A stretch of 64,000 bases of DNA from a phage. Under the pieces are notes generated by a model. That model ran no database searches, was not told the DNA's origin, and saw only the letters and a program-made list of their open reading frames with translations. Positions 38,541 through 49,575 of the stretch are shown piece after piece. The translations under genes and the position numbers were made by a program. Position 1 is the stretch's first letter; every line of letters starts with the position of its first letter. The stretch lies in sequence record PZ151149.1. One strand, written 5' to 3'.

Positions 38541-38957
38541 TTACATTGCTTCCGTAAAGGTGCGCGAAATAACGTCACGTTGTTGGTCTGGAGTCAGACT
38601 ATTGAATCTTACGGCATATCCGCTAACGCGAATGGTTAGTTGCGGATACTTATCAGGATTAGCAACCGCATCAAGAAGAAGATCGCGACTCATCACATTG
38701 ATATTCGCGTGCTGACCACCTTCGACAACCGGAGCGCCATTATCTACAACAACCGGACGGAAGCTAGTTGTGTGCAGTGCCAGCGAATCGACGTCTTCGG
38801 CGGTGATCACATGTTCTTCTGCGAAAGTTTTACTAACAATTACTTTAGCGCCGATCAGTGCTTTCGGTTCGGATACCAGAATCATAGGCGCGAAGTGTCC
38901 ACCGATAATAGTACCTTTATGCTCACCTTTCATGATTTGAATTGCTTTAAATTCCAT
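38541..38957 (-). CDS. Autonomous glycyl-radical cofactor (GrcA/YfiD-like)
   Basis: C-terminal [29 protein letters not shown] is the glycyl-radical signature. Confidence 0.75.
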
Positions 38958-39092: not shown

Positions 39093-39578
39093 TCAGTTGA
39101 TACCTAAGCCAATGAAAATAGGTTGGTCTTCTACATTACCCATCCCAACACTAAGTCGATTTACTTCTAAAAACTGCAATACGCTGTCAGTAAATCCTCG
39201 CATGGTAGTATCTAGGATAAAGATTGTTTTGTCAAGACTACGACCTCGCCAAGTGATCGGATTCAGGAAAGTTCGGATCGAAGTGCAATCTACATTTGAA
39301 ATGTTGATATTTTCACCGCGACCGCGTTCTCGGATCGTTTTGGCATGTTCCCGCGTTGTTGAAACGATAAAAACACTATATCCTTTTCGCGTATAATGGT
39401 CATATAACTTGATTGTAGCGTCTGTATGCCCTGTTTGACGGCCTAAATTGATTGAGACGATGGAATCTAGGTCATCAGCAAAATTACGTCGCTTACGGCG
39501 TTCTATGATGCCATCTACGGCAGATACACACGCAGCATAAATCAAATCTTTACTTTCTAATTTTACATCAATATTCAT
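39093..39578 (-). CDS. hypothetical protein
   Basis: 161-aa ORF. Confidence 0.45.
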   Translation of the reverse strand: MNIDVKLESKDLIYAACVSAVDGIIERRKRRNFADDLDSIVSINLGRQTGHTDATIKLYDHYTRKGYSVFIVSTTREHAKTIRERGRGENINISNVDCTSIRTFLNPITWRGRSLDKTIFILDTTMRGFTDSVLQFLEVNRLSVGMGNVEDQPIFIGLGIN

Positions 39579-39640: not shown

Positions 39641-40030
39641 TTATTTTGGATCTGGGTATTTGCTGTGTGGCAATTGTAGATGAGGACCATCTTTGAAACT
39701 AGACCAATCCCCACCCCATTCAACAGGAACACCCAATTCTCGACCAGCTTGTTTAAATGCATCAGCGATCATGCGGTAATATTTCATGTTCCATGTATCC
39801 TTATCTTTAGGATACGCTACAACGTCAACCGCGAAACCGTGAAGATGACGAGATTTCATAGTCTTAGATTTACCTTCCGCAACATATTTCTTTTGCGTTT
39901 CTAGACTACGCACACCTTCCGTAATACCAAAATCGACCGGAGTCAGTTCTAATGCACGATGAACGACTTTTACCAGGTCTGGATGTACACCAACAAGCCG
40001 ATCTTTGCTTCTTTGAGATAATTTAAACAT
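39641..40030 (-). CDS. Peptidase M15-like cell-wall hydrolase (candidate endolysin)
   Basis: SRHLHGFAVDV ... WGGDW ... DGPHLQL zinc-peptidase motifs. Confidence 0.6.
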   Translation of the reverse strand: MFKLSQRSKDRLVGVHPDLVKVVHRALELTPVDFGITEGVRSLETQKKYVAEGKSKTMKSRHLHGFAVDVVAYPKDKDTWNMKYYRMIADAFKQAGRELGVPVEWGGDWSSFKDGPHLQLPHSKYPDPK

Positions 40031-40058
40031 TATTCACCCCCTTTGTGAGTGATAATAT

Positions 40059-40250
40059 TTAGATTCCTGTGATCCTGCATAGAGTTCTTGTATTAGCACC
40101 AATCAGGATCGCATTAACGGCAACCATTCCCCAATCAACCCACGGATTATTATAAATGCTAAATCCGTTTGCTAGGCCAAATACAAGCATTCCGGTACAC
40201 ATACTCAGAGCAATAATCAACATCACGGTAAAACCAAATGCAAATCTCAT
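40059..40250 (-). CDS. small hydrophobic membrane protein
   Basis: 63 aa, two TM-like segments. Confidence 0.4.
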   Translation of the reverse strand: MRFAFGFTVMLIIALSMCTGMLVFGLANGFSIYNNPWVDWGMVAVNAILIGANTRTLCRITGI

Positions 40251-40251
40251 A

Positions 40252-40467
40252 TTATTTTCCTTTTCTCTGTTTACGTTTATAAAAGTAATACATTACCTCA
40301 TCGCGTCCGGTGATCCAACATGCTAGGGCGGTAAACAGGTTTACAATTCCCAACACACCTACGGATGCGGCGCTGTCAACAGACATAGGAACAGTAAAGG
40401 CCATAACTAACATAGCAACGCCACAAATGACATTAAGCACCATTATAATAAGACCGAAGAAAACCAT
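40252..40467 (-). CDS. small hydrophobic membrane protein
   Basis: ATG at 40467. Confidence 0.4.
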   Translation of the reverse strand: MVFFGLIIMVLNVICGVAMLVMAFTVPMSVDSAASVGVLGIVNLFTALACWITGRDEVMYYFYKRKQRKGK

Positions 40468-40469
40468 TG

Positions 40470-40649
40470 TCAATCCTCCGACACAAGAAAACCAACAATC
40501 ACGCCAGTGATAAGACATGATGCACCGCTAATAAGACAACCCGCGCCAAGTGATTCCCACCATATAAGGGAAGCGACGATAACACAGAGTCCCCAGACTA
40601 CAGCAATCACAACATAGGCAATGGTCGCCCAAAACATATATTTGTTCAT
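40470..40649 (-). CDS. small hydrophobic membrane protein
   Basis: ATG at 40649. Confidence 0.4.
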   Translation of the reverse strand: MNKYMFWATIAYVVIAVVWGLCVIVASLIWWESLGAGCLISGASCLITGVIVGFLVSED

Positions 40650-40834
40650 AATAAATCCCATTCACCAAACAAATAAGAAAAAAGCCATATCAACAGAAAC
40701 GAGGCGATTGATCCAGCAAGCAAAATGATATTAGAGAATCCGCCGTCTATCCAGCCAATCAAACAGAATACGCCAGTATAGAAGCACAACCCCAGCACAA
40801 AGCATACTATAATCAACCATAGATAAAACGCCAT
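40646..40834 (-). CDS. small hydrophobic membrane protein
   Basis: 62 aa, GGAGGG SD. Confidence 0.4.
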   Translation of the reverse strand: MAFYLWLIIVCFVLGLCFYTGVFCLIGWIDGGFSNIILLAGSIASFLLIWLFSYLFGEWDLL

Positions 40835-40895
40835 AGAAAGCCCTCCAGTTAGCTAATTTAGTGCGGGTAGTACATTCCCCTACCCGCTTTGTTAA

Positions 40896-41054
40896 TCAAC
40901 GTAGAGCTTGTTCTAAAGCGATTCCAAACCATCCGCAAACAACACCCATACAGACAGCGACAAGAAGACTCATTCTCTCTTTAGGGATCATTGCAATCAT
41001 AACAACAACCATACAGAAAGCCATTACCATTGCAGTTAACATTTGTTCAATCAT
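40896..41054 (-). CDS. possible small membrane protein (52 aa, below ORF-track cutoff)
   Basis: MIEQMLTAMVMAFCMVVVMIAMIPKERMSLLVAVCMGVVCGWFGIALEQALR read from minus strand. Confidence 0.3.
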   Translation of the reverse strand: MIEQMLTAMVMAFCMVVVMIAMIPKERMSLLVAVCMGVVCGWFGIALEQALR

Positions 41055-41056
41055 TA

Positions 41057-41377
41057 TCACACCTTCAAAGTCATAGACGCATAGACATTAATACCAGGCC
41101 AGTTAGGATCGCAATTATACTCAACATCCCATAGATAAAGCGGTTTAGATGTATCAGCCAGGTTTTTAAAATCTTCTACCCACATTTCAAGGCTATATGA
41201 AGGATAAACTAGGCTATCATACCCTCCGTAACGTTGGCCTACTGGTCGGTCAGTAAAGACTACCTCAAGATCCGGTAATTCTTTTTCTAGGATAACCGCC
41301 AGCGCATAAATCAGGCGGTCTTCCTTGTTACGCTGCCGTAGGACCGTTGTCAGTTGGTTCGTCTGGTTCACTAGCAA
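41057..41377 (-). CDS. hypothetical protein (start uncertain, overlaps upstream ORF)
   Basis: Longest ORF starts at TTG; GTG two codons in with GGAGG SD is plausible. Confidence 0.4.
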   Translation of the reverse strand: MLVNQTNQLTTVLRQRNKEDRLIYALAVILEKELPDLEVVFTDRPVGQRYGGYDSLVYPSYSLEMWVEDFKNLADTSKPLYLWDVEYNCDPNWPGINVYASMTLKV

Positions 41378-41648
41378 CTACCTCCACATTTTCACAGAAT
41401 GAAATTTTCACAGACACAATTTTACCATAAGTGAAGAATGAATATACATTATCGAGATATTCAACGTCACCTACAATCACATCAAACTGCGGATCAGCAA
41501 CTGCCGCAACATATTCTACCAGTTCATCAAGAGAATGCAACTTAATTTCATCAATTCGGCTGTATTTGGTTGCATCTTTGATCTTAAAACCACGTTCTTT
41601 CAGTTTATCGATCAGAATTTCGCGCGGAGTTTCAAACAGTTTACTCAT
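41328..41648 (-). CDS. hypothetical protein
   Basis: 106-aa ORF with ATG start. Confidence 0.45.
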   Translation of the reverse strand: MSKLFETPREILIDKLKERGFKIKDATKYSRIDEIKLHSLDELVEYVAAVADPQFDVIVGDVEYLDNVYSFFTYGKIVSVKISFCENVEVVASEPDEPTDNGPTAA

Positions 41649-41666
41649 AATATAATCCTCACACAG

Positions 41667-41867
41667 TTAATCAGTATAGTCAATAATCTTGCACATTACA
41701 ATTGAAAGAACAAAGACCGCAACCCACATATAGATCCCAGCAATCAATGCTACTTCAATATCACAATATCCAAGAAGTACAACAGGAATAAAAACAAACA
41801 TACAGACCAGCGCAATGAAACTAGCATATACGCTCGAAAATATGATGGCACTATTATTAATTTTCAT
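41667..41867 (-). CDS. small hydrophobic membrane protein
   Basis: 66 aa. Confidence 0.4.
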   Translation of the reverse strand: MKINNSAIIFSSVYASFIALVCMFVFIPVVLLGYCDIEVALIAGIYMWVAVFVLSIVMCKIIDYTD

Positions 41868-41868
41868 A

Positions 41869-42051
41869 TTAACAATCCTCGCGGTTTAAGTCAACTATAA
41901 TTGCATACAGCATAATGAAAACACTAGCAGATCCTAGAATCAATGCACCGTCACATTTTGAAACGCGCTCATCAAAATGTAACATTATCCATCCGAGGAT
42001 GTTAAAGGCGCAGACCGCGCCTATGTTCGCTAACCAATTAATCTTTTTCAT
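41869..42051 (-). CDS. small hydrophobic membrane protein
   Basis: 60 aa. Confidence 0.4.
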   Translation of the reverse strand: MKKINWLANIGAVCAFNILGWIMLHFDERVSKCDGALILGSASVFIMLYAIIVDLNREDC

Positions 42052-42059
42052 AATATACC

Positions 42060-42386
42060 TTAGAAAGAAACAGTTTTCAAGAAATCCAGATTTTCAGTAC
42101 CGAAAACAGAAAAGTAGTGTTTTCCTTTTTCGGTTTTAGAGAAAGCGATTGTCTTCTCTACATGGTGACGGAAGCCAGACAGACGATCACCCAGGTCAAG
42201 GCGGCAAGCGTAAGTAGTGCCGTTTTCGAAAGTAACCTCGATTTGAGTTTTGTCATATTCGCTTTCATAGGCTTTTGCTGCCGCGTCCTGTGCTTTACGC
42301 TCGAAGTCTTCGAAGTGGAATACTTCGTTTGCGTTAGCGAATACAGAAGATTCAGAGAAGATAACTTTAACAGATACTGGTTTCAT
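42060..42386 (-). CDS. hypothetical protein
   Basis: 108 aa; preceded by promoter and conserved leader. Confidence 0.5.
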   Translation of the reverse strand: MKPVSVKVIFSESSVFANANEVFHFEDFERKAQDAAAKAYESEYDKTQIEVTFENGTTYACRLDLGDRLSGFRHHVEKTIAFSKTEKGKHYFSVFGTENLDFLKTVSF

Positions 42387-42428
42387 TTTGATACTCCTTA
42401 GTAGTTCGTGTTTCGTTTCGATGGGTGT

Positions 42429-42457
42429 ATTATGATATACACCCTATCGTGTGTCAA
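42429..42457 (-). promoter_or_regulatory. Early promoter TTGACA-17-CATAAT
   Basis: Minus-strand hexamers upstream of 42060..42386. Confidence 0.45.
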
Positions 42458-42465
42458 CAACTTTT

Positions 42466-42654
42466 TTAGTCTTTTTTCATAATTTCTAGGGCAGTTTCTA
42501 CCGCACCTTTCCAACCTTCCCACATAATGGACATAGTGATGAAGGTAAAGCACCCGCAGGAATCAGCCTTTTTAGAAATAAACCATTCTACAAACTCTTC
42601 GCTCATACCATGCTCTTTAGCGGATTCGCGTAATTGTTCAATTTTGTCTTCCAT
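42466..42654 (-). CDS. hypothetical small protein
   Basis: 62 aa. Confidence 0.4.
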   Translation of the reverse strand: MEDKIEQLRESAKEHGMSEEFVEWFISKKADSCGCFTFITMSIMWEGWKGAVETALEIMKKD

Positions 42655-42663
42655 AGTATCACC

Positions 42664-42852
42664 TCAACACTTAACGTTATTCAATCGATTTTGAAAGTAC
42701 ATATAACAAGCATAGTTCTGTTTTGGTTGTACCGTATCAGATAGACACGCTTTTACAGCCTCGCGGTCCGATGGATCTACACCCTCAGCTTTAAGTAATG
42801 CTAAAATCTGGTTATAGCGTACTCTTAGTTGTACTAATGGTTTCTCCCCCAT
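42664..42852 (-). CDS. hypothetical small protein
   Basis: 62 aa. Confidence 0.4.
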   Translation of the reverse strand: MGEKPLVQLRVRYNQILALLKAEGVDPSDREAVKACLSDTVQPKQNYACYMYFQNRLNNVKC

Positions 42853-42863
42853 AATATACCCTC

Positions 42864-43091
42864 TTACAGTTGATCAGCAATGTATGCGGTGCATTTGCGG
42901 AGTTTAGCCATAGCACCACCTTTCATGTCGCTTGCGCCTACAATGTTCATGATCTCTAAGCGATCAGCCGGATTCAGTCTAGTAGCCCAGATCTGGTTAG
43001 CCAGTTCCATTTTACCCATCTGCGGTTCCATCTCAAACAGTTCACGCTCAAAGTCGATAATTTCTTTTGCTGCGTCTTTAAAGTTAATCAT
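42864..43091 (-). CDS. hypothetical small protein
   Basis: 75 aa. Confidence 0.45.
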   Translation of the reverse strand: MINFKDAAKEIIDFERELFEMEPQMGKMELANQIWATRLNPADRLEIMNIVGASDMKGGAMAKLRKCTAYIADQL

Positions 43092-43120
43092 TTTGATTCT
43101 CCCGTTTCGTTGATGGTTGT

Positions 43121-43149
43121 ATTGTAGGGGAGTTATCCTCCCCTGTCAA
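43121..43149 (-). promoter_or_regulatory. Early promoter TTGACA-17-TACAAT with hairpin-forming spacer
   Basis: Spacer GGGGAGGATAACTCCCC. Confidence 0.45.
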
Positions 43150-43157
43150 CACTTTTA

Positions 43158-43343
43158 TCAGAAATATGCAATATAGTTTGCCAGTCCTACAGAGTCATCA
43201 TTCGGCATTGCTTTTACTGCCAGTTCAAACCCTGCTTCAACTTTCTGTTTAGCGGATTCTTCGTTATAACCCCAAATTACCAGAATAGCTACTACGTTTT
43301 CTTTGCTTACTGCTTTCAGTGCTTTAGTGATGCGACGTGCCAT
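43158..43343 (-). CDS. hypothetical small protein
   Basis: 61 aa. Confidence 0.4.
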   Translation of the reverse strand: MARRITKALKAVSKENVVAILVIWGYNEESAKQKVEAGFELAVKAMPNDDSVGLANYIAYF

Positions 43344-43389
43344 AATTTGATTCTCCGTTTAAGAAAGTGTGTTTCGTTTCGATGGGTGT

Positions 43390-43418
43390 ATTATGCTATA
43401 GGCGGGGTCTGGTGTCAA
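43390..43418 (-). promoter_or_regulatory. Early promoter TTGACA-17-CATAAT
   Basis: Minus strand; followed by conserved leader. Confidence 0.45.
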
Positions 43419-43444
43419 CAACTTTTTTCAAAAAAATTTAGGCA

Positions 43445-43471
43445 ATAAAAAAGCCACTCCGAAGAGTGGCT
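43445..43471 (-). terminator. Rho-independent terminator
   Basis: Minus-strand hairpin AGCCACUC-UUCG-GAGUGGCU + UUUUUUAUU. Confidence 0.55.
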
Positions 43472-43621
43472 TATAGGGGAAGGTAGCGAATCTTCCTTGT
43501 CTCCAACCTGCTAGCGGCCTAGCAAGTGAATGCTTTAGCGTACCGGATCACCCCATACGCTGCAATAAATGCGGCTAGGTGACGTCCAAATCATTCTAAC
43601 CGCGCTGTCTTTAGTTCACTA

Positions 43622-43840
43622 TTATTTATATCGCTTTCTCTCGCGACGTTTTTGATCTTCTTCCTTGATAGAGTTAAATGCATCAAAAAGACACATGACA
43701 CTGATCAGGAACATAACCGTATTTTCTACGATATCCCACGGCTTCGCATCAGTACAGATCCCCCAAACGGTAAGAAATGCAAATAGTGCAGAAGAGATCA
43801 CAAGCATGATACTTGCTAAGATATAAAAAGTCATCTTCAT
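43622..43840 (-). CDS. small membrane protein
   Basis: 72 aa, two hydrophobic segments, basic C-terminus. Confidence 0.45.
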   Translation of the reverse strand: MKMTFYILASIMLVISSALFAFLTVWGICTDAKPWDIVENTVMFLISVMCLFDAFNSIKEEDQKRRERKRYK

Positions 43841-44019
43841 GGTTTTACCTCAATTCTTCGATATTCATCACACATCCACGCAGTAAGCAAGAATCCCAAC
43901 ACATAAGCAACAAAATACGTTAATGCTTCTTCTGGTTCCGTGCTATGTGTCATCAGTAAACCAGCGAGAACAGTCTTAATAATTACATTTAAAATAATTA
44001 GCCACGCAAATAGTTTCAT
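43837..44019 (-). CDS. small membrane protein
   Basis: 60 aa. Confidence 0.4.
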   Translation of the reverse strand: MKLFAWLIILNVIIKTVLAGLLMTHSTEPEEALTYFVAYVLGFLLTAWMCDEYRRIEVKP

Positions 44020-44240
44020 CGTTTGCCCAATTTCGGCCGAGTCTTTTCAAACTTATACATTCCGTAACAATCTCGAATCATCCACGTAACAAGAGCACCA
44101 GTCAACACCGACAACACACAGAAGAAGTAAAACGGTCCGGTTGCATTATCAACATGAGCAAGCCATGTAAAGAAAACACATGCTAAGAATGTAAAGAACA
44201 TCATAAAGCACAAGAAAGCGAAATATTTTATACTACTCAT
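44016..44240 (-). CDS. small membrane protein
   Basis: ATG at 44240 with GGTGG SD. Confidence 0.4.
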   Translation of the reverse strand: MSSIKYFAFLCFMMFFTFLACVFFTWLAHVDNATGPFYFFCVLSVLTGALVTWMIRDCYGMYKFEKTRPKLGKR

Positions 44241-44343
44241 AGAGCCACCATACAACAGATCATAAGAAAACCCAACGCAATAAGAATTGCATCAAATTTA
44301 GTGAACTCAGGTCCACCTATCAACATCATTCGTTCCTGTTCAG

Positions 44344-44541
44344 TCATAGATCACAGATCCATCTAACAACACCACATACAGCGATCAGGAGTGTAGGACC
44401 ACTTGAGAAGAAAACCAATGTACAAAAATCATCTAGTGTAATACCGGAATAACTACCGACTGCAATCACACCGATGATCAGACACAGAAAGAAAACAAAT
44501 GCAATCAGAAACAAAGTATTACTAAACAGTTTAGTGATCAT
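44344..44541 (-). CDS. small membrane protein
   Basis: ATG at 44541. Confidence 0.35.
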   Translation of the reverse strand: MITKLFSNTLFLIAFVFFLCLIIGVIAVGSYSGITLDDFCTLVFFSSGPTLLIAVCGVVRWICDL

Positions 44542-44734
44542 TAGACACCCCACGACGGTCAATTTCAAAAACTTTCTTATCACCAACGAAGCATGTCACA
44601 ACTGCCTCGTTGACTTCCGCAAATTGTTGTGTTACCCACTTAAGGTCAGATCGAAACAATGTTTTGTTAATAACAAATGTTTTACCGATCTTATCCTTAC
44701 CCATAAATTTTGCGTTAACCATATCCAATTCCAT
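44531..44734 (-). CDS. hypothetical small protein
   Basis: 67 aa. Confidence 0.4.
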   Translation of the reverse strand: MELDMVNAKFMGKDKIGKTFVINKTLFRSDLKWVTQQFAEVNEAVVTCFVGDKKVFEIDRRGVSNDH

Positions 44735-44743
44735 ATTATAGCC

Positions 44744-44902
44744 TTATTTGCTAATCGCTAAACCTAATCCGAAGAGAGCACCCGACGCTACAGTATACCC
44801 GAAAGTTTCAAATGCAGTAAAGATATCTAAGCCACCAGCTAACAGAGTTGCAGTAAACAGAGTACCAGCTACGAACATAAAAGTTTTACCGATAAATTTC
44901 AT
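44744..44902 (-). CDS. possible small membrane protein (52 aa, below ORF-track cutoff)
   Basis: MKFIGKTFMFVAGTLFTATLLAGGLDIFTAFETFGYTVASGALFGLGLAISK; preceded by AGGAGAATCAAG leader and promoter. Confidence 0.35.
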   Translation of the reverse strand: MKFIGKTFMFVAGTLFTATLLAGGLDIFTAFETFGYTVASGALFGLGLAISK

Positions 44903-44933: not shown

Positions 44934-44962
44934 ATCTTACTACCCCCGTTTCATGTTGTCAA
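44934..44962 (-). promoter_or_regulatory. Early promoter with stem-loop (TTGACA-17-TAAGAT)
   Basis: GGGGGUAGUAAGAUACCCCC hairpin spans -10. Confidence 0.45.
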
Positions 44963-44968
44963 CTGTTT

Positions 44969-45346
44969 TTAAGAAAATTTTACTTCGTCTACAATGTCTT
45001 TCATGACATTGATTTCCATTCCGGTCAGAACACGTTGGAACATGTGCTGCACATACGCTTTCAGGTATTCATTTGATGGCTTACTATCGAAAGTCTTTTT
45101 AGTGTAGTAGTCATCACCGAAAGCTACTGTAATTACATTTTCGTCGTCGTTCCAAGCGATATAAGCAAATTTGCCGTTATCCCAGAAGCGAGCACTAATT
45201 GCTACTTTTGTTGAATCGAATCCTACTTCGCTGTGAGATTCAAGAACTACTTGCGTACCAGTTTCTTTATGAATGTAGTAGCGGGATACTAAGTCAAAGT
45301 TACGGGTGTAGTGACATTCGAATTTATCTTTAAACATCATCATCAT
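44969..45346 (-). CDS. hypothetical protein
   Basis: Starts MMMMFKDKFE at ATG 45346 with AGGAG SD. Confidence 0.5.
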   Translation of the reverse strand: MMMMFKDKFECHYTRNFDLVSRYYIHKETGTQVVLESHSEVGFDSTKVAISARFWDNGKFAYIAWNDDENVITVAFGDDYYTKKTFDSKPSNEYLKAYVQHMFQRVLTGMEINVMKDIVDEVKFS

Positions 45347-45383: not shown

Positions 45384-45412
45384 ATTATGCTATAGTCGTT
45401 TATGGTTGTCAA
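45384..45412 (-). promoter_or_regulatory. Early promoter TTGACA-17-CATAAT
   Basis: Minus strand upstream of 44969..45346. Confidence 0.45.
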
Positions 45413-45417
45413 CAACT

Positions 45418-45448
45418 AAAAACAAAAAACCCCGAAAAATTTTCGGGG
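45418..45448 (-). terminator. Rho-independent terminator after 57B
   Basis: Minus-strand hairpin CCCCGAAAAUUUUUCGGGG + UUUUUUGUUUUU. Confidence 0.6.
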
Positions 45449-45455
45449 TATAAAA

Positions 45456-45920
45456 TTACAGTTTGGTCGTCCACTCCAGGTCTAGATCTTCGACATACTC
45501 ATGAGATCGGACAATCTCTAAATCGAACTCTAGGTCAGTGCCAAATTTACGCGCACCAACATCATAAGAAAGCGTGATATGCGGTACATATTCAGGATAA
45601 TCCCACGTCGCACCTAAAGCAGTGCCGATATCGTGTCTGAATTGCATGTAGTCGCTTTCAAATGCCAACACAAGTGCATTAGTACCGGATTGAGTTTCAA
45701 ACACTTTCAAATGGCATAGAGAGCCTAAGAACTTCTCCCCTTCTTCTGGGATAAACGGAACATAAACACGAGAATATAAGATAGTGCTATGCAGTTTATC
45801 ACGAGTAACGGCATTAGGCAGATCGTAGAACTCCTGCAATTTTTCAATGCGGTCTAGTGTATCCTCAGTGAATTTAACCGCCGCATATGTACCTTTAACG
45901 GATTCTCGAAACGGGGTCAT
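45456..45920 (-). CDS. 57B: 2H-phosphoesterase family protein, gene 57B position (Acb1-like anti-CBASS nuclease candidate)
   Basis: Two H-x-T/S motifs (HSTILYS and HITLSY) ~80 aa apart; 154 aa; lies next to 57A and gene 1 as T4 57B does. Confidence 0.55.
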   Translation of the reverse strand: MTPFRESVKGTYAAVKFTEDTLDRIEKLQEFYDLPNAVTRDKLHSTILYSRVYVPFIPEEGEKFLGSLCHLKVFETQSGTNALVLAFESDYMQFRHDIGTALGATWDYPEYVPHITLSYDVGARKFGTDLEFDLEIVRSHEYVEDLDLEWTTKL

Positions 45921-45922
45921 AA

Positions 45923-46183
45923 TCAAGCCTCCGTGATCAGTTCTACTTCCTCTTTAGCGTCTTCTGCTGCTTCGTCTTTAGGGAGAAGTTCTTTTACTTC
46001 TTCGACAATAGCATCAAGGGAAACAGTGCCATTTTCATCTGGCTGAATACCCAGAATGCGTACCAGTTCCATCAAGACACGCTCACGATCTTTCAGTTGG
46101 CCTTCTAAGAATGCGGCTTTTTCTTGAGTGTCGAACAGACGTACTTTCAGGACATTAATCATTTGTTCATGCTGATTGGACAT
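45923..46183 (-). CDS. 57A: Tail-fibre assembly chaperone gp57A
   Basis: Small acidic coiled-coil protein upstream of gene 1; similarity to T4 gp57A. Confidence 0.7.
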   Translation of the reverse strand: MSNQHEQMINVLKVRLFDTQEKAAFLEGQLKDRERVLMELVRILGIQPDENGTVSLDAIVEEVKELLPKDEAAEDAKEEVELITEA

Positions 46184-48262: not shown

Positions 48263-48517
48263 ATGACAGAAGACATTTTGTTAAAACTCTATGATCGTTT
48301 GGATAACGAATTAGCAACATTGCGGGGTGAAGTTCTCTATTTGTCTAAATGCAATACAGATCTGATTAAGCAGATTGCCGAAAGGGATGACCAAATAAAA
48401 TCCCTTTCAGGCGCATTACGTGATCGCGACAAGGCATTAGAGATTTTACAGCGTGTAACCAATAAAGAAGAGTTGAAAGACTTTCTACATGGTTATGCTC
48501 ACGCCATCGATCTATAA
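48263..48517 (+). CDS. hypothetical coiled-coil protein (isolated plus-strand gene)
   Basis: 84-aa ORF, GAGGA SD 6 nt upstream, followed directly by a hairpin terminator. Confidence 0.45.
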   Translation: MTEDILLKLYDRLDNELATLRGEVLYLSKCNTDLIKQIAERDDQIKSLSGALRDRDKALEILQRVTNKEELKDFLHGYAHAIDL

Positions 48518-48520
48518 TAA

Positions 48521-48548
48521 AAAGCCCGTCAATGACGGGCTTAATTTT
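48521..48548. terminator. Bidirectional hairpin terminator
   Basis: GCCCGUC-AAUG-ACGGGC flanked by U tracts on both strands; sits between convergent genes. Confidence 0.55.
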
Positions 48549-49575
48549 AATATGTATCAGCTAATTTAATTATGTTATCAAGTTCCGTGATTGGTAAAGT
48601 TTCTGTGTATCCATCTTTCAACATGGATTTATCAACAACGCCACAATGATAAGTTCTCTTTATTTCCTTTTCAAGTTCCCACGGAATCCAGCCATCAACA
48701 CTTTGTTTGACGTAAACAAGTTTGTGAACAAACTTAGATTTCTGCATATGTTGTTTCATTCTGGTTTCCGGTAATTCATTGGTTACACCAAACTTTATAA
48801 ATTTATCATCTAACGTCTGGATATAAAAATATCCCATCTCAGATGGACGATAGCCAGAAGAACTACATTTCGGACACCCTTTAGCATTTCTGTTGAACGT
48901 ACAATATCTTACAGAAAATTCGGCGTCATGTTTTGTACATTTAAGTTTTATCCATGAATTTGCAGTACCTATCCATTCACCATCGACACCTATATATTCA
49001 TACCCTAACTTTTTACATTTATCTTCTATTCTAGATAGTGCATCTTCCACGGGAACGACATATTCCGTCTTAAATTGTTCAGCCGCACATTTCTTACAAC
49101 CACATGTACCATGATTTTTAAAATCAAAGAACTTTGTATTCTTCCAAATATGGTCATGTTTCTTGCATCTAAGAATCATCTTAGTAATTTGTGATTTCCA
49201 GCCACCAACAAATCCCAAAAATTCATAATCAAGATCTTTACATTTTTCTTCAATGAATTTGGTTGCTTCATCTTCTGTCATAACTCCCCTACATTGAGGG
49301 CAACCAACAATAACCTTTTTAGCATAGAAACTATTACTGGAAACATCATAGACAGTTCCATGCTTATTGCATTGGATAACAGATCTAGTCAATTTTCCTT
49401 TCCATTCTCCAGTAAATCCTAAGAATGTATGGTCGACAAGTTTACATCTTTCAATAACTTTATCTGCAAACTCTCTAGGAGATTTTGTTACCTTGTTTAC
49501 TCTGTATTCTATTTCTTCCGGTTGACGAAGATCATAAACGTGGGGATTTCTCCCCACGGAATTAATATTAAGCAT
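48547..49575 (-). CDS. Zinc-finger-repeat protein with C-terminal T5orf172/GIY-YIG-like domain (putative homing endonuclease or DNA-binding protein)
   Basis: Three ~45-aa repeats each with C..H ... C.KH ... GCP.C; C-terminal GYFYIQTLDDKFIKFGVTNELPETR resembles T5orf172; start ATG 49575 overlaps stop of gene 2. Confidence 0.55.
   Translation of the reverse strand: MLNINSVGRNPHVYDLRQPEEIEYRVNKVTKSPREFADKVIERCKLVDHTFLGFTGEWKGKLTRSVIQCNKHGTVYDVSSNSFYAKKVIVGCPQCRGVMTEDEATKFIEEKCKDLDYEFLGFVGGWKSQITKMILRCKKHDHIWKNTKFFDFKNHGTCGCKKCAAEQFKTEYVVPVEDALSRIEDKCKKLGYEYIGVDGEWIGTANSWIKLKCTKHDAEFSVRYCTFNRNAKGCPKCSSSGYRPSEMGYFYIQTLDDKFIKFGVTNELPETRMKQHMQKSKFVHKLVYVKQSVDGWIPWELEKEIKRTYHCGVVDKSMLKDGYTETLPITELDNIIKLADTY

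Follow-up and report, generated by a model that had tools for sequence, protein, structure and literature searches.

Small predicted membrane proteins encoded upstream of the endolysin gene of a Krischvirus: a genus-restricted gene island with early-type promoters

An island of small genes lies between the endolysin gene and gene 57B in the window, a phage DNA stretch of 64,000 nucleotides (nt; sequence record PZ151149.1), which was analysed as a whole. Comparison of the 6-kb region under study with deposited phage genomes yielded 95–97 % identity to 59 of them, all of the genus Krischvirus (RB49, Phi1, JSE, GEC-3S and others), with Shigella phage SSG23 as the closest deposited match (96.6 % identity, 100 % query cover). 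The window belongs to a Krischvirus, a T4-type coliphage of the RB49/Phi1/JSE kind. Between 38.5 and 47 kb of the window all credible genes were located on the minus strand, therefore the small open reading frames (ORFs) are situated upstream of the peptidase in transcription. A preliminary description of this DNA had recognized the adjacency of both, but had placed the small ORFs behind the peptidase. All ORFs listed in that description, including three of less than 60 amino acids (aa), are annotated in at least some Krischvirus records, with the label 'hypothetical protein' or, in W115, 'putative membrane protein'.

Start codons were chosen from Shine-Dalgarno (SD) motifs and the annotation of relatives, and helices were assigned by hydropathy analysis. 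Positions 40059-44902 contain 21 genes on the minus strand, coding for 36–108 aa, followed by g23 (125 aa) and then by 57B. Thirteen of the 21 products (36–74 aa) are hydrophobic with transmembrane (TM) helices, eight are soluble. The genes are listed below together with the flanking endolysin and 57B genes, the best family matches and, where available, the ratio of nonsynonymous to synonymous polymorphism (pN/pS).

39641..40030, minus strand: endolysin, EndoRB49-type M15C L-alanyl-D-glutamate peptidase, 129 aa; matches in Pfam, PHROGs and PDB
40059..40250, minus strand: g02, 63 aa, one or two TM helices; phrog_15016 over full length; pN/pS 0.26
40252..40467, minus strand: g03, 71 aa, two-TM hairpin, basic C-terminal tail (seven lysine or arginine residues, K/R); phrog_15232; pN/pS 0.11
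40470..40649, minus strand: g04, 59 aa, two-TM hairpin, 4-nt overlap of its start with the g05 stop; phrog_16151; pN/pS 0.24
40646..40834, minus strand: g05, 62 aa, two-TM hairpin, least constrained; phrog_19354; pN/pS 0.65
40896..41054, minus strand: g06, 52 aa, two-TM hairpin; phrog_16035; pN/pS 0.22
41057..41371, minus strand: g07, 104 aa, soluble, GTG start, 44-nt overlap with g08; phrog_16246; pN/pS 0.10
41328..41648, minus strand: g08, 106 aa, soluble; phrog_16584; pN/pS 0.10
41667..41867, minus strand: g09, 66 aa, two-TM hairpin, replaceable cassette; weaker match to phrog_15379
41869..42051, minus strand: g10, 60 aa, two-TM hairpin; phrog_16425; pN/pS 0.36
42060..42386, minus strand: g11, 108 aa, soluble, LPD25 domain; Pfam PF18840, 3.2e-14
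42466..42654, minus strand: g12, 62 aa, soluble, gp55.3/DUF5490-like; 25.3 bits, under the 27-bit cut-off; gp55.3 in relatives
42664..42852, minus strand: g13, 62 aa, soluble; phrog_18624
42864..43091, minus strand: g14, 75 aa, soluble; phrog_10996
43158..43343, minus strand: g15, 61 aa, soluble, DUF7421, most conserved gene of the island; pN/pS 0.02
43622..43840, minus strand: g16, 72 aa, two-TM hairpin, N-terminal MKM, very basic C-terminal tail; phrog_15168; pN/pS 0.12
43837..44019, minus strand: g17, 60 aa, two-TM hairpin, 4-nt overlap with g18; pN/pS 0.27
44016..44240, minus strand: g18, 74 aa, two-TM hairpin, basic C-terminal tail, 4-nt overlap with g19; pN/pS 0.09
44237..44347, minus strand: g19, 36 aa, single C-terminal TM helix, 4-nt overlap with g20; phrog_15282; annotated in JSE, SSG23, phiS and others
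44344..44541, minus strand: g20, 65 aa, two-TM hairpin, 11-nt overlap of its start with the dmd stop; pN/pS 0.62
44531..44734, minus strand: dmd, 67 aa, antitoxin 'discriminator of mRNA degradation'; Pfam Dmd 1.8e-13, 51.1 bits against a cut-off of 27; phrog_2102
44744..44902, minus strand: g22, 52 aa, Gly-rich two-TM hairpin, opens the dmd operon; phrog_16462; pN/pS 0.08
44969..45346, minus strand: g23, 125 aa, soluble; phrog_15253; weak Gp30.7 match below cut-off
45456..45926, minus strand: 57B, the anti-CBASS phosphodiesterase Acb1, 156 aa; Pfam Acb1 3.4e-51, 173 bits against a cut-off of 27

Two TM helices were assigned to eleven products (g03, g04, g05, g06, g09, g10, g16, g17, g18, g20 and g22), a single C-terminal helix to g19 and one or two helices to g02, in agreement with the one or two TM-like segments noted earlier. 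The run of hydrophobic ORFs and their small size had been described correctly, but the estimates of about 15 hydrophobic ORFs and of 50 to 90 aa have to be replaced by 13 hydrophobic and eight soluble products, Dmd among the latter, and by the range of 36–108 aa. Besides Dmd, which shares 43 % identity with Dmd of T4, the soluble products comprise g11 (LPD25), g12 (gp55.3/DUF5490-like), g15 (DUF7421) and four proteins without a family. The three ORFs proposed below 60 aa exist at 40896-41054 (52 aa), 44744-44902 (52 aa) and 44237-44347 (36 aa) and are annotated in RefSeq relatives. The TM proteins have K/R-bearing N termini and acidic or neutral loops, with basic tails in g03, g16 and g18. This charge distribution suggests that they are mostly two-helix hairpins with an N-in/C-in topology.

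An SD core of at least 4 nt at a spacing of 5–9 nt was present at 16 of the 22 small genes (g02–g23). Among the remaining six, five begin within the end of the upstream gene, with start/stop overlaps of 4 or 11 nt, and the sixth, dmd, has only a weak AAGG. The overlapping starts and stops were confirmed, with seven such overlaps in the island. The overlaps of 4 and 11 nt imply translational coupling, by which the chain dmd/g20/g19/g18/g17/g16 would be linked throughout.

Reading frames were almost always intact across 11 relatives, which form with the window a set of 12 genomes, and variable sites were concentrated at third codon positions. For ten of the twelve TM genes scored the pN/pS was 0.08–0.36 (g09 could not be scored), in the same range as the values for the dNMP kinase (0.09) and the endolysin (0.25). 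As distant comparison genome served L017, a metagenome-assembled 170-kb relative with 88 % identity, which keeps the entire island except g09. Most TM genes showed a dN/dS, the corresponding ratio of substitution rates, of 0.13–0.28 towards L017 at a synonymous divergence (dS) of up to 1.1; the pooled dN/dS of the TM genes was 0.24, that of the other genes 0.17. As judged from these sequence comparisons, the small ORFs are real genes and not chance reading frames.

The distribution of the TM proteins is restricted to one genus. In a tblastn search of the 13 proteins against 50,697 phage records, matches were obtained only in the same 59 Krischvirus genomes. For g16 six clusters, all with at least 82 % identity, were present among 5.8 billion proteins, for g18 two true representatives among 1.84 billion proteins, and neither search revealed a relative outside the Krischvirus group. 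Each small ORF matched its own small PHROG of unknown function over the full length, with a weaker match for g09, and all PHROGs matched by TM ORFs carry the label 'unknown function'. Known families in Pfam, PHROGs and NCBIfam gave for the TM ORFs sub-threshold compositional matches only. The genes of the island do not form a recent tandem family: an all-against-all comparison of the 23 products by blastp and phmmer revealed no paralogy, with nothing below E = 0.03. Possible T4 relatives were considered for the island ORFs, namely 61.4, Sp, 61.2, 61.1, the membrane ORFs of the e.x/trna.4 series and Imm; only Dmd was matched.

Within the genus some members vary. The gene g09 occurs in two alleles with about 31 % protein identity; the RB49/GEC-3S type has in addition a two-TM gene of 65 aa, of which W115 and ELT4 carry truncated versions. 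In L017 a tblastn match to g09 was not obtained, and two other genes occupy its position. In ELT4 the gene g05 is disrupted, and in Whisky it forms a fusion with g04. Island members are lost or exchanged in viable phages, therefore loss or exchange is tolerated.

In T4 the positional counterpart is the interval from e to 57B (e.1-e.8, rnaC/rnaD, tRNAs, trna.2-4, ipI), bounded by vs.8/endolysin and by 57B-57A-1-3-2; the T4 gene order vs.8...e...57B-57A-1-3-2 matches that of Krischvirus. Membrane ORFs are present in T4 as well (e.3, e.4 and trna.4; C-terminal hydrophobic segments in e.2 and e.7), but only the flanks are homologous, and the T4 ORFs with hydrophobic segments are larger. They amount to 5 of 12 ORFs, compared to 13 of 21 TM ORFs in Krischvirus, 5 of 17 in Aeromonas phage 25 and 3 of 22 in Citrobacter phage IME-CF2. 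These numbers rule out that a TM-rich interval between e and 57B is a general T4-type trait. T4 has eight tRNAs in the syntenic interval, whereas ARAGORN detected no tRNA gene in the 64-kb window, in agreement with the published count of zero for RB49.

The transmembrane character has been on record since 2006 in a supplementary table, and the genes were already in databases. Thirteen of the 20 TMHMM-positive novel ORFs of RB49 reported by Nolan et al. 2006 lie within ORFs 103–124, which correspond to this island; for this clustering a hypergeometric P of ~5e-9 to 6e-12 was calculated. A discussion of the transmembrane character of the island or papers on the function of its ORFs were not found in the literature.

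Five predicted sigma-70 promoters were located in intergenic regions of the minus strand, four of them, from 45412, 43418, 43149 and 42457, with 11 of 12 consensus positions and the fifth, from 44962, with 10 of 12. They map one-to-one to early promoters (Pe) predicted for RB49 (Nolan 2006, Additional file 3). Several are of the PeSL type, an intergenic sigma-70 promoter with an AT-rich upstream region and an adjacent or overlapping G/C stem-loop, followed by SD and ATG (PMC2839356).

45384..45449, minus strand: intrinsic terminator (45429-45449), then early promoter (45384-45412), upstream boundary of the island; RB49 Pe:60694
44934..44962, minus strand: early promoter, 10/12, stem-loop GGGGGTA...TACCCCC over the -10 box (PeSL); RB49 Pe:60244
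43390..43418, minus strand: early promoter TTGACA-17-CATAAT; RB49 Pe:58699, score 43.6
43121..43149, minus strand: early promoter, 11/12 (PeSL); RB49 Pe:58430
42429..42457, minus strand: early sigma-70 promoter TTGACA-17-CATAAT, -10 box covered by a stem-loop (PeSL type), predicted to drive g11–g02; RB49 Pe:57746

Stem-loops of a G-run and a C-run cover or separate the promoter boxes at three of the five sites, and a shared leader, CATCGAAACGAAACAC...GGAGAATCAA, is present at four. The PeSL arrangement was observed at 43121-43149, 44934-44962, 42429-42457 and 45384-45449, and at 43390-43472 in the form of a terminator with a promoter behind it. Strong intrinsic terminators are located at 45429-45449 and 43451-43472. 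A motif scan together with the RB49 prediction revealed no late promoter upstream of any small gene; also Nolan 2006 did not predict a late promoter in the RB49 interval. The only exact copy of the late-promoter consensus, TATAAATA, is situated after the last gene of the first of two predicted operons. This operon A would be transcribed from the promoter at ~44962 through g22, dmd and the translationally coupled g20–g16 and end at the terminator 43451-43472. Operon B would start from the promoters at 43418, 43149 and 42457, comprise the genes from g15 to g02 and continue into the endolysin gene by read-through. Dmd of T4 is needed immediately after infection to neutralise RnlA or LsoA. Since dmd is coupled to five membrane ORFs, immediate-early synthesis is expected for these as well.

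Promoters and gene content resemble the hyperplastic regions of RB49 and phi1 (Arbiol et al. 2010, PMC2839356; Comeau et al. 2014, PMC4122927), which are of the same genus and the same kind of region: near-consensus sigma-70 promoters with stem-loops, a shared leader, small ORFans and a varying gene content. The interval between the endolysin and 57B/57A/gene 1 would be the Krischvirus form of such a hyperplastic, i.e. variable and non-core, region. However, these papers deal with the mechanism of shuffling, not with the ORF products, and the text of PMC2839356 makes no mention of membrane proteins or transmembrane segments. In difference to the PeSL-bordered regions, the g09 allele swap is flanked by coding genes.

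The endolysin is a known enzyme of the EndoRB49 type. It matched Pfam Peptidase_M15_4 (6e-12, 46.4 bits, cut-off 25), the endolysin PHROG phrog_465 (9e-69) and EndoT5 (2mxz, E 3.5e-21); 128 of the 129 residues are identical to PDB entry 23ri_A, and 8q2g is also near. The zinc peptidase-like wall hydrolase that had been recognized from the motifs SRHLHGFAVDV and WGGDW is the characterised EndoRB49. The translation contains the zinc ligands H62, D69 and H117, the catalytic D114 and the conserved W109, roles established for the biochemically characterised EndoRB49 (PMC10487532). The start of its gene is covered by a predicted RNA structure.

40018..40066, minus strand: endolysin translation-initiation hairpin, identified by folding and conservation

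In this 49-nt hairpin the SD sequence GGGGGUG and the AUG are paired with the upstream arm. The folding energy was -12.5 kcal/mol (z = -5.3), and none of 200 shuffled sequences folded equally well. The 5' arm carries a late-promoter-type box, TCTAAATA, at 40056-40063; in the RB49 record this octamer forms the annotated -10 box of a 'late RB49 promoter' upstream of gene 32. A transcript from ~40050, six bases downstream of the box, folded with -3.8 kcal/mol (z = 0.03), no better than shuffled sequences. About 45 nt upstream of the endolysin start and into the first codons were identical in the 12 genomes, whereas the coding sequence further upstream varies. In L017 the hairpin is kept, and a coding change closes a bulge (-17.8 kcal/mol). 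At the level of motifs, the endolysin gene appears uncoupled from the small genes by its own late-type box and a hairpin that would sequester the ribosome binding site. The hairpin over SD and AUG would keep the endolysin silent on early read-through transcripts, and translation would probably occur only from a late transcript starting inside the hairpin.

For gene e of T4 such a control has been reported: a hairpin in the early read-through mRNA sequesters SD and AUG (McPheeters et al. 1986, as reviewed in PMC3014915), and the late promoter is placed so that late transcripts lose the 5' arm (PMC3014915). The Krischvirus endolysin gene likewise combines a hairpin that buries SD and AUG with a late box giving a transcript without the 5' arm. 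The differences are a non-orthologous enzyme, an M15 peptidase instead of a lysozyme, and the box TCTAAATA instead of TATAAATA, and the switch of Krischvirus is predicted from the sequence. RB49 and phi-1 were entered in that review as 'no apparent gene e' and were not examined there; a description of a gene-e-like switch on the Krischvirus endolysin was not found in the literature.

Several explanations of the hydrophobic ORFs have to be weighed. Annotation noise or functionless, decaying remnants would be in line with very short ORFs without homologues outside the genus and without known domains, with a pN/pS above 0.6 for g05 and g20, and with the broken or fused g05 and the truncated extra TM gene of W115 and ELT4. 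But the frames are open in nearly all 12 genomes with variation mostly at third codon positions, the pN/pS of ten TM genes and the dN/dS towards the 88 %-identical genome indicate constraint, and nearly every ORF has an SD motif or a 4-nt coupling overlap. This explanation is highly improbable. Lysis factors acting with the adjacent endolysin, that is additional holins, pinholins, antiholins or spanin-like proteins, had been suggested in the preliminary description and are in accordance with the proximity to the endolysin gene and with g03, g16 and g18, each of which combines a length of about 70 aa and two TM helices with a strongly basic C-terminal tail. This size, the two TM helices and a charged C terminus are shared by class II holins and pinholins such as S21 of phage 21, and the MKM of g16 may represent a dual start as in dual-start holins. 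However, small size together with one or more TM helices and a charged C-terminal tail is a generic feature and does not discriminate. The best Pfam holin matches were weak and below threshold (E 0.03–0.06, 14–15 bits at cut-offs of 27–28), NCBIfam gave none, and in none of the three collections (Pfam, NCBIfam, PHROGs) did a small ORF reach the threshold of a family of holins, spanins or Imm. Moreover, RB49 encodes its T4-type lysis genes away from the island: the T-type holin t (154972-155628), the antiholin rI (48388-48690) and the spanins pseT.2/pseT.3 (128606-129321). RB49, Phi1 and JSE are members of the T4 spanin families, and lysis genes of T4-like phages are not clustered (Kongari et al.). 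An i-spanin is defined by an N-terminal TM helix and a periplasmic helical domain of ~90 aa, an o-spanin by a lipobox cysteine; sequence inspection of the ORFs, with 36–74 aa and loops of at most 19 aa, revealed neither a canonical lipobox nor a periplasmic coiled-coil or long domain. A late expression co-ordinated with the endolysin, as expected for a holin, is not indicated by the motifs: the promoters are of the early type, and a late box of its own and an inhibitory hairpin set the endolysin gene apart. In addition, several island members are variable or broken in viable phages. The holin-like architecture, especially of g16, is compatible with the sequence, but the context argues against a role in lysis. 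The island is unlikely to be the lysis cassette of the phage, and we consider lysis factors among its hydrophobic products improbable.

The TM proteins may alternatively be effectors of the host physiology unrelated to competition or defense, e.g., modulators or toxins of transport, cell division or energy use, or stabilisers of the membrane. Early promoters, membrane hairpins and purifying selection fit this equally, and the under-representation of novel-ORF regions in plasmid libraries observed by Nolan et al. suggests toxicity. Other ORFans of variable regions take part in host takeover, such as the J-domain protein of RB43 (PMC3486835). Core takeover functions are, however, usually conserved across genera, whereas the presence in one genus with replaceable alleles is an arms-race-like pattern, and counter-defense genes are the neighbors; physiology effectors are a rather unlikely, still serious alternative. 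We favor, with moderate confidence, an early accessory set of genus-specific small inner-membrane proteins in a hyperplastic region, with a plausible role in exclusion or counter-defense. Our best guess from the sequence is in accordance with the 'exclusion proteins or small membrane effectors' named in the preliminary description. Within minutes after the onset of infection the 13 hydrophobic products would become inserted into the inner membrane, where the host envelope would be the probable target of these accessory effectors. The likeliest roles would be to block DNA entry of competing phages, as Imm of T4 does, or to neutralise membrane-associated host defenses. This would match the neighboring counter-defense genes dmd and acb1.

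T4 Imm (83 aa, early, inner membrane, non-essential) is similar in size class and early context, and g03, g16 and g18 share its two helices and charged C-terminal tail. It differs by the lack of sequence similarity to the island ORFs (best E 5.9), for which also no Pfam family reached the threshold, and by the genomic position of imm between genes 42 and 43. Homologues of T4 Imm and Sp, which stop a superinfecting phage at DNA entry or at its gp5 lysozyme, were not detected in 119 kb of RB49, including all early regions, or in the window; the best E values in tblastn and blastp were 1.3 for Imm and 0.088 for Sp, the latter a likely spurious match inside gene 41. Exclusion functions, if the genus has them, must therefore use unrelated proteins, and the island ORFs are plausible candidates. 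A more specific proposal, which we regard as tentative, is that the island is a non-homologous substitute for the missing Imm and Sp: an early battery of inner-membrane hairpin proteins, each directed against the DNA entry of a different competitor or against a different membrane-embedded host defense, with the dmd–g20–g16 chain produced in fixed ratios, perhaps for one complex, and with the g09 swap and the broken g05 as traces of an arms race.

Several observations weigh against exclusion or counter-defense by an early membrane protein set. No functional or structural homology ties any TM ORF to a known exclusion or anti-defense protein. The Imm-like architecture is generic for small membrane proteins and equally holin-like, and the MKM start and charged C-terminal tail of g16 resemble class II holins, although the island ORFs have no membership in these families and an early context, and the genus already has a T-type holin. 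A transcriptome or proteome of a Krischvirus was not found in the literature, and the expression timing is predicted from promoter motifs. Constraint is relaxed in g05 (pN/pS 0.65) and g20 (0.62), the only such cases; some island members may be decaying. Finally, a further sigma-70-like match (TTGACA-17-TATTAT, 11/12) is present on the minus strand at 40445-40473, inside coding sequence at the g04/g03 junction. Nolan 2006 predicted no early promoter at the RB49 counterpart; the match may be due to chance or represent an internal promoter.

Between g16 and g15 the island contains a structured element outside of the coding sequences.

43445..43630, minus strand: conserved non-coding element of ~150 nt, with TATAAATA at 43623-43630 over the g16 stop and the terminator 43451-43472

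The element folds strongly (minimum free energy -64.8 kcal/mol, z = -4.1) and is 96.8–100 % identical among the Krischvirus records listed and ~97 % in L017. It is not a tRNA, matched no Rfam family (best E 0.32) and has no similarity to rnaC or rnaD of T4. Four of the 104 paired columns vary, none with a compensatory change, which is too little variation for an assessment of covariation. The element could be a candidate late small RNA of ~170 nt.

Downstream of the endolysin two neighboring genes were identified.

39093-39578, minus strand: vs.8, downstream neighbor of the endolysin
38541-38957, minus strand: vs.6, glycyl-radical GrcA-like domain, Pfam 4.9e-15

The order of vs.6 and vs.8 is as in T4, but vs.8 and the endolysin gene follow one another without denV, ipII and ipIII. 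JSE, phiS, Whisky and JK32 have at this place an extra ORF of 191 aa, which is absent from the window; it is located at 1642-2217 in JSE (record L004) and occurs also in the records L007, L008 and L009. In JK32 it is labelled 'pathogenesis-related transcriptional factor and ERF protein', AP2-type. This label suggests a candidate homing endonuclease; if so, a mobile element would have inserted beside the endolysin gene. On the other side of the island, the Acb1 gene is labelled 'RNA ligase' or 57B in most relatives and has homologues in 1459 phage records.

Adjacency to an endolysin gene alone does not make a lysis cassette in a T4-type genome. Two by-products of the analysis may merit a short experimental look, the gene-e-like translational switch on a non-orthologous endolysin and the ~170-nt non-coding element, structured and highly conserved, that follows a late-promoter consensus. 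Tiny uncharacterised membrane proteins account for about an eighth of the ORFs in the 64-kb stretch, and the Krischviruses phi1 and JSE are used in phage-therapy cocktails. If the proposed role in exclusion or counter-defense is true, these proteins would affect the interference of phages within cocktails and the range of strains that can be infected.

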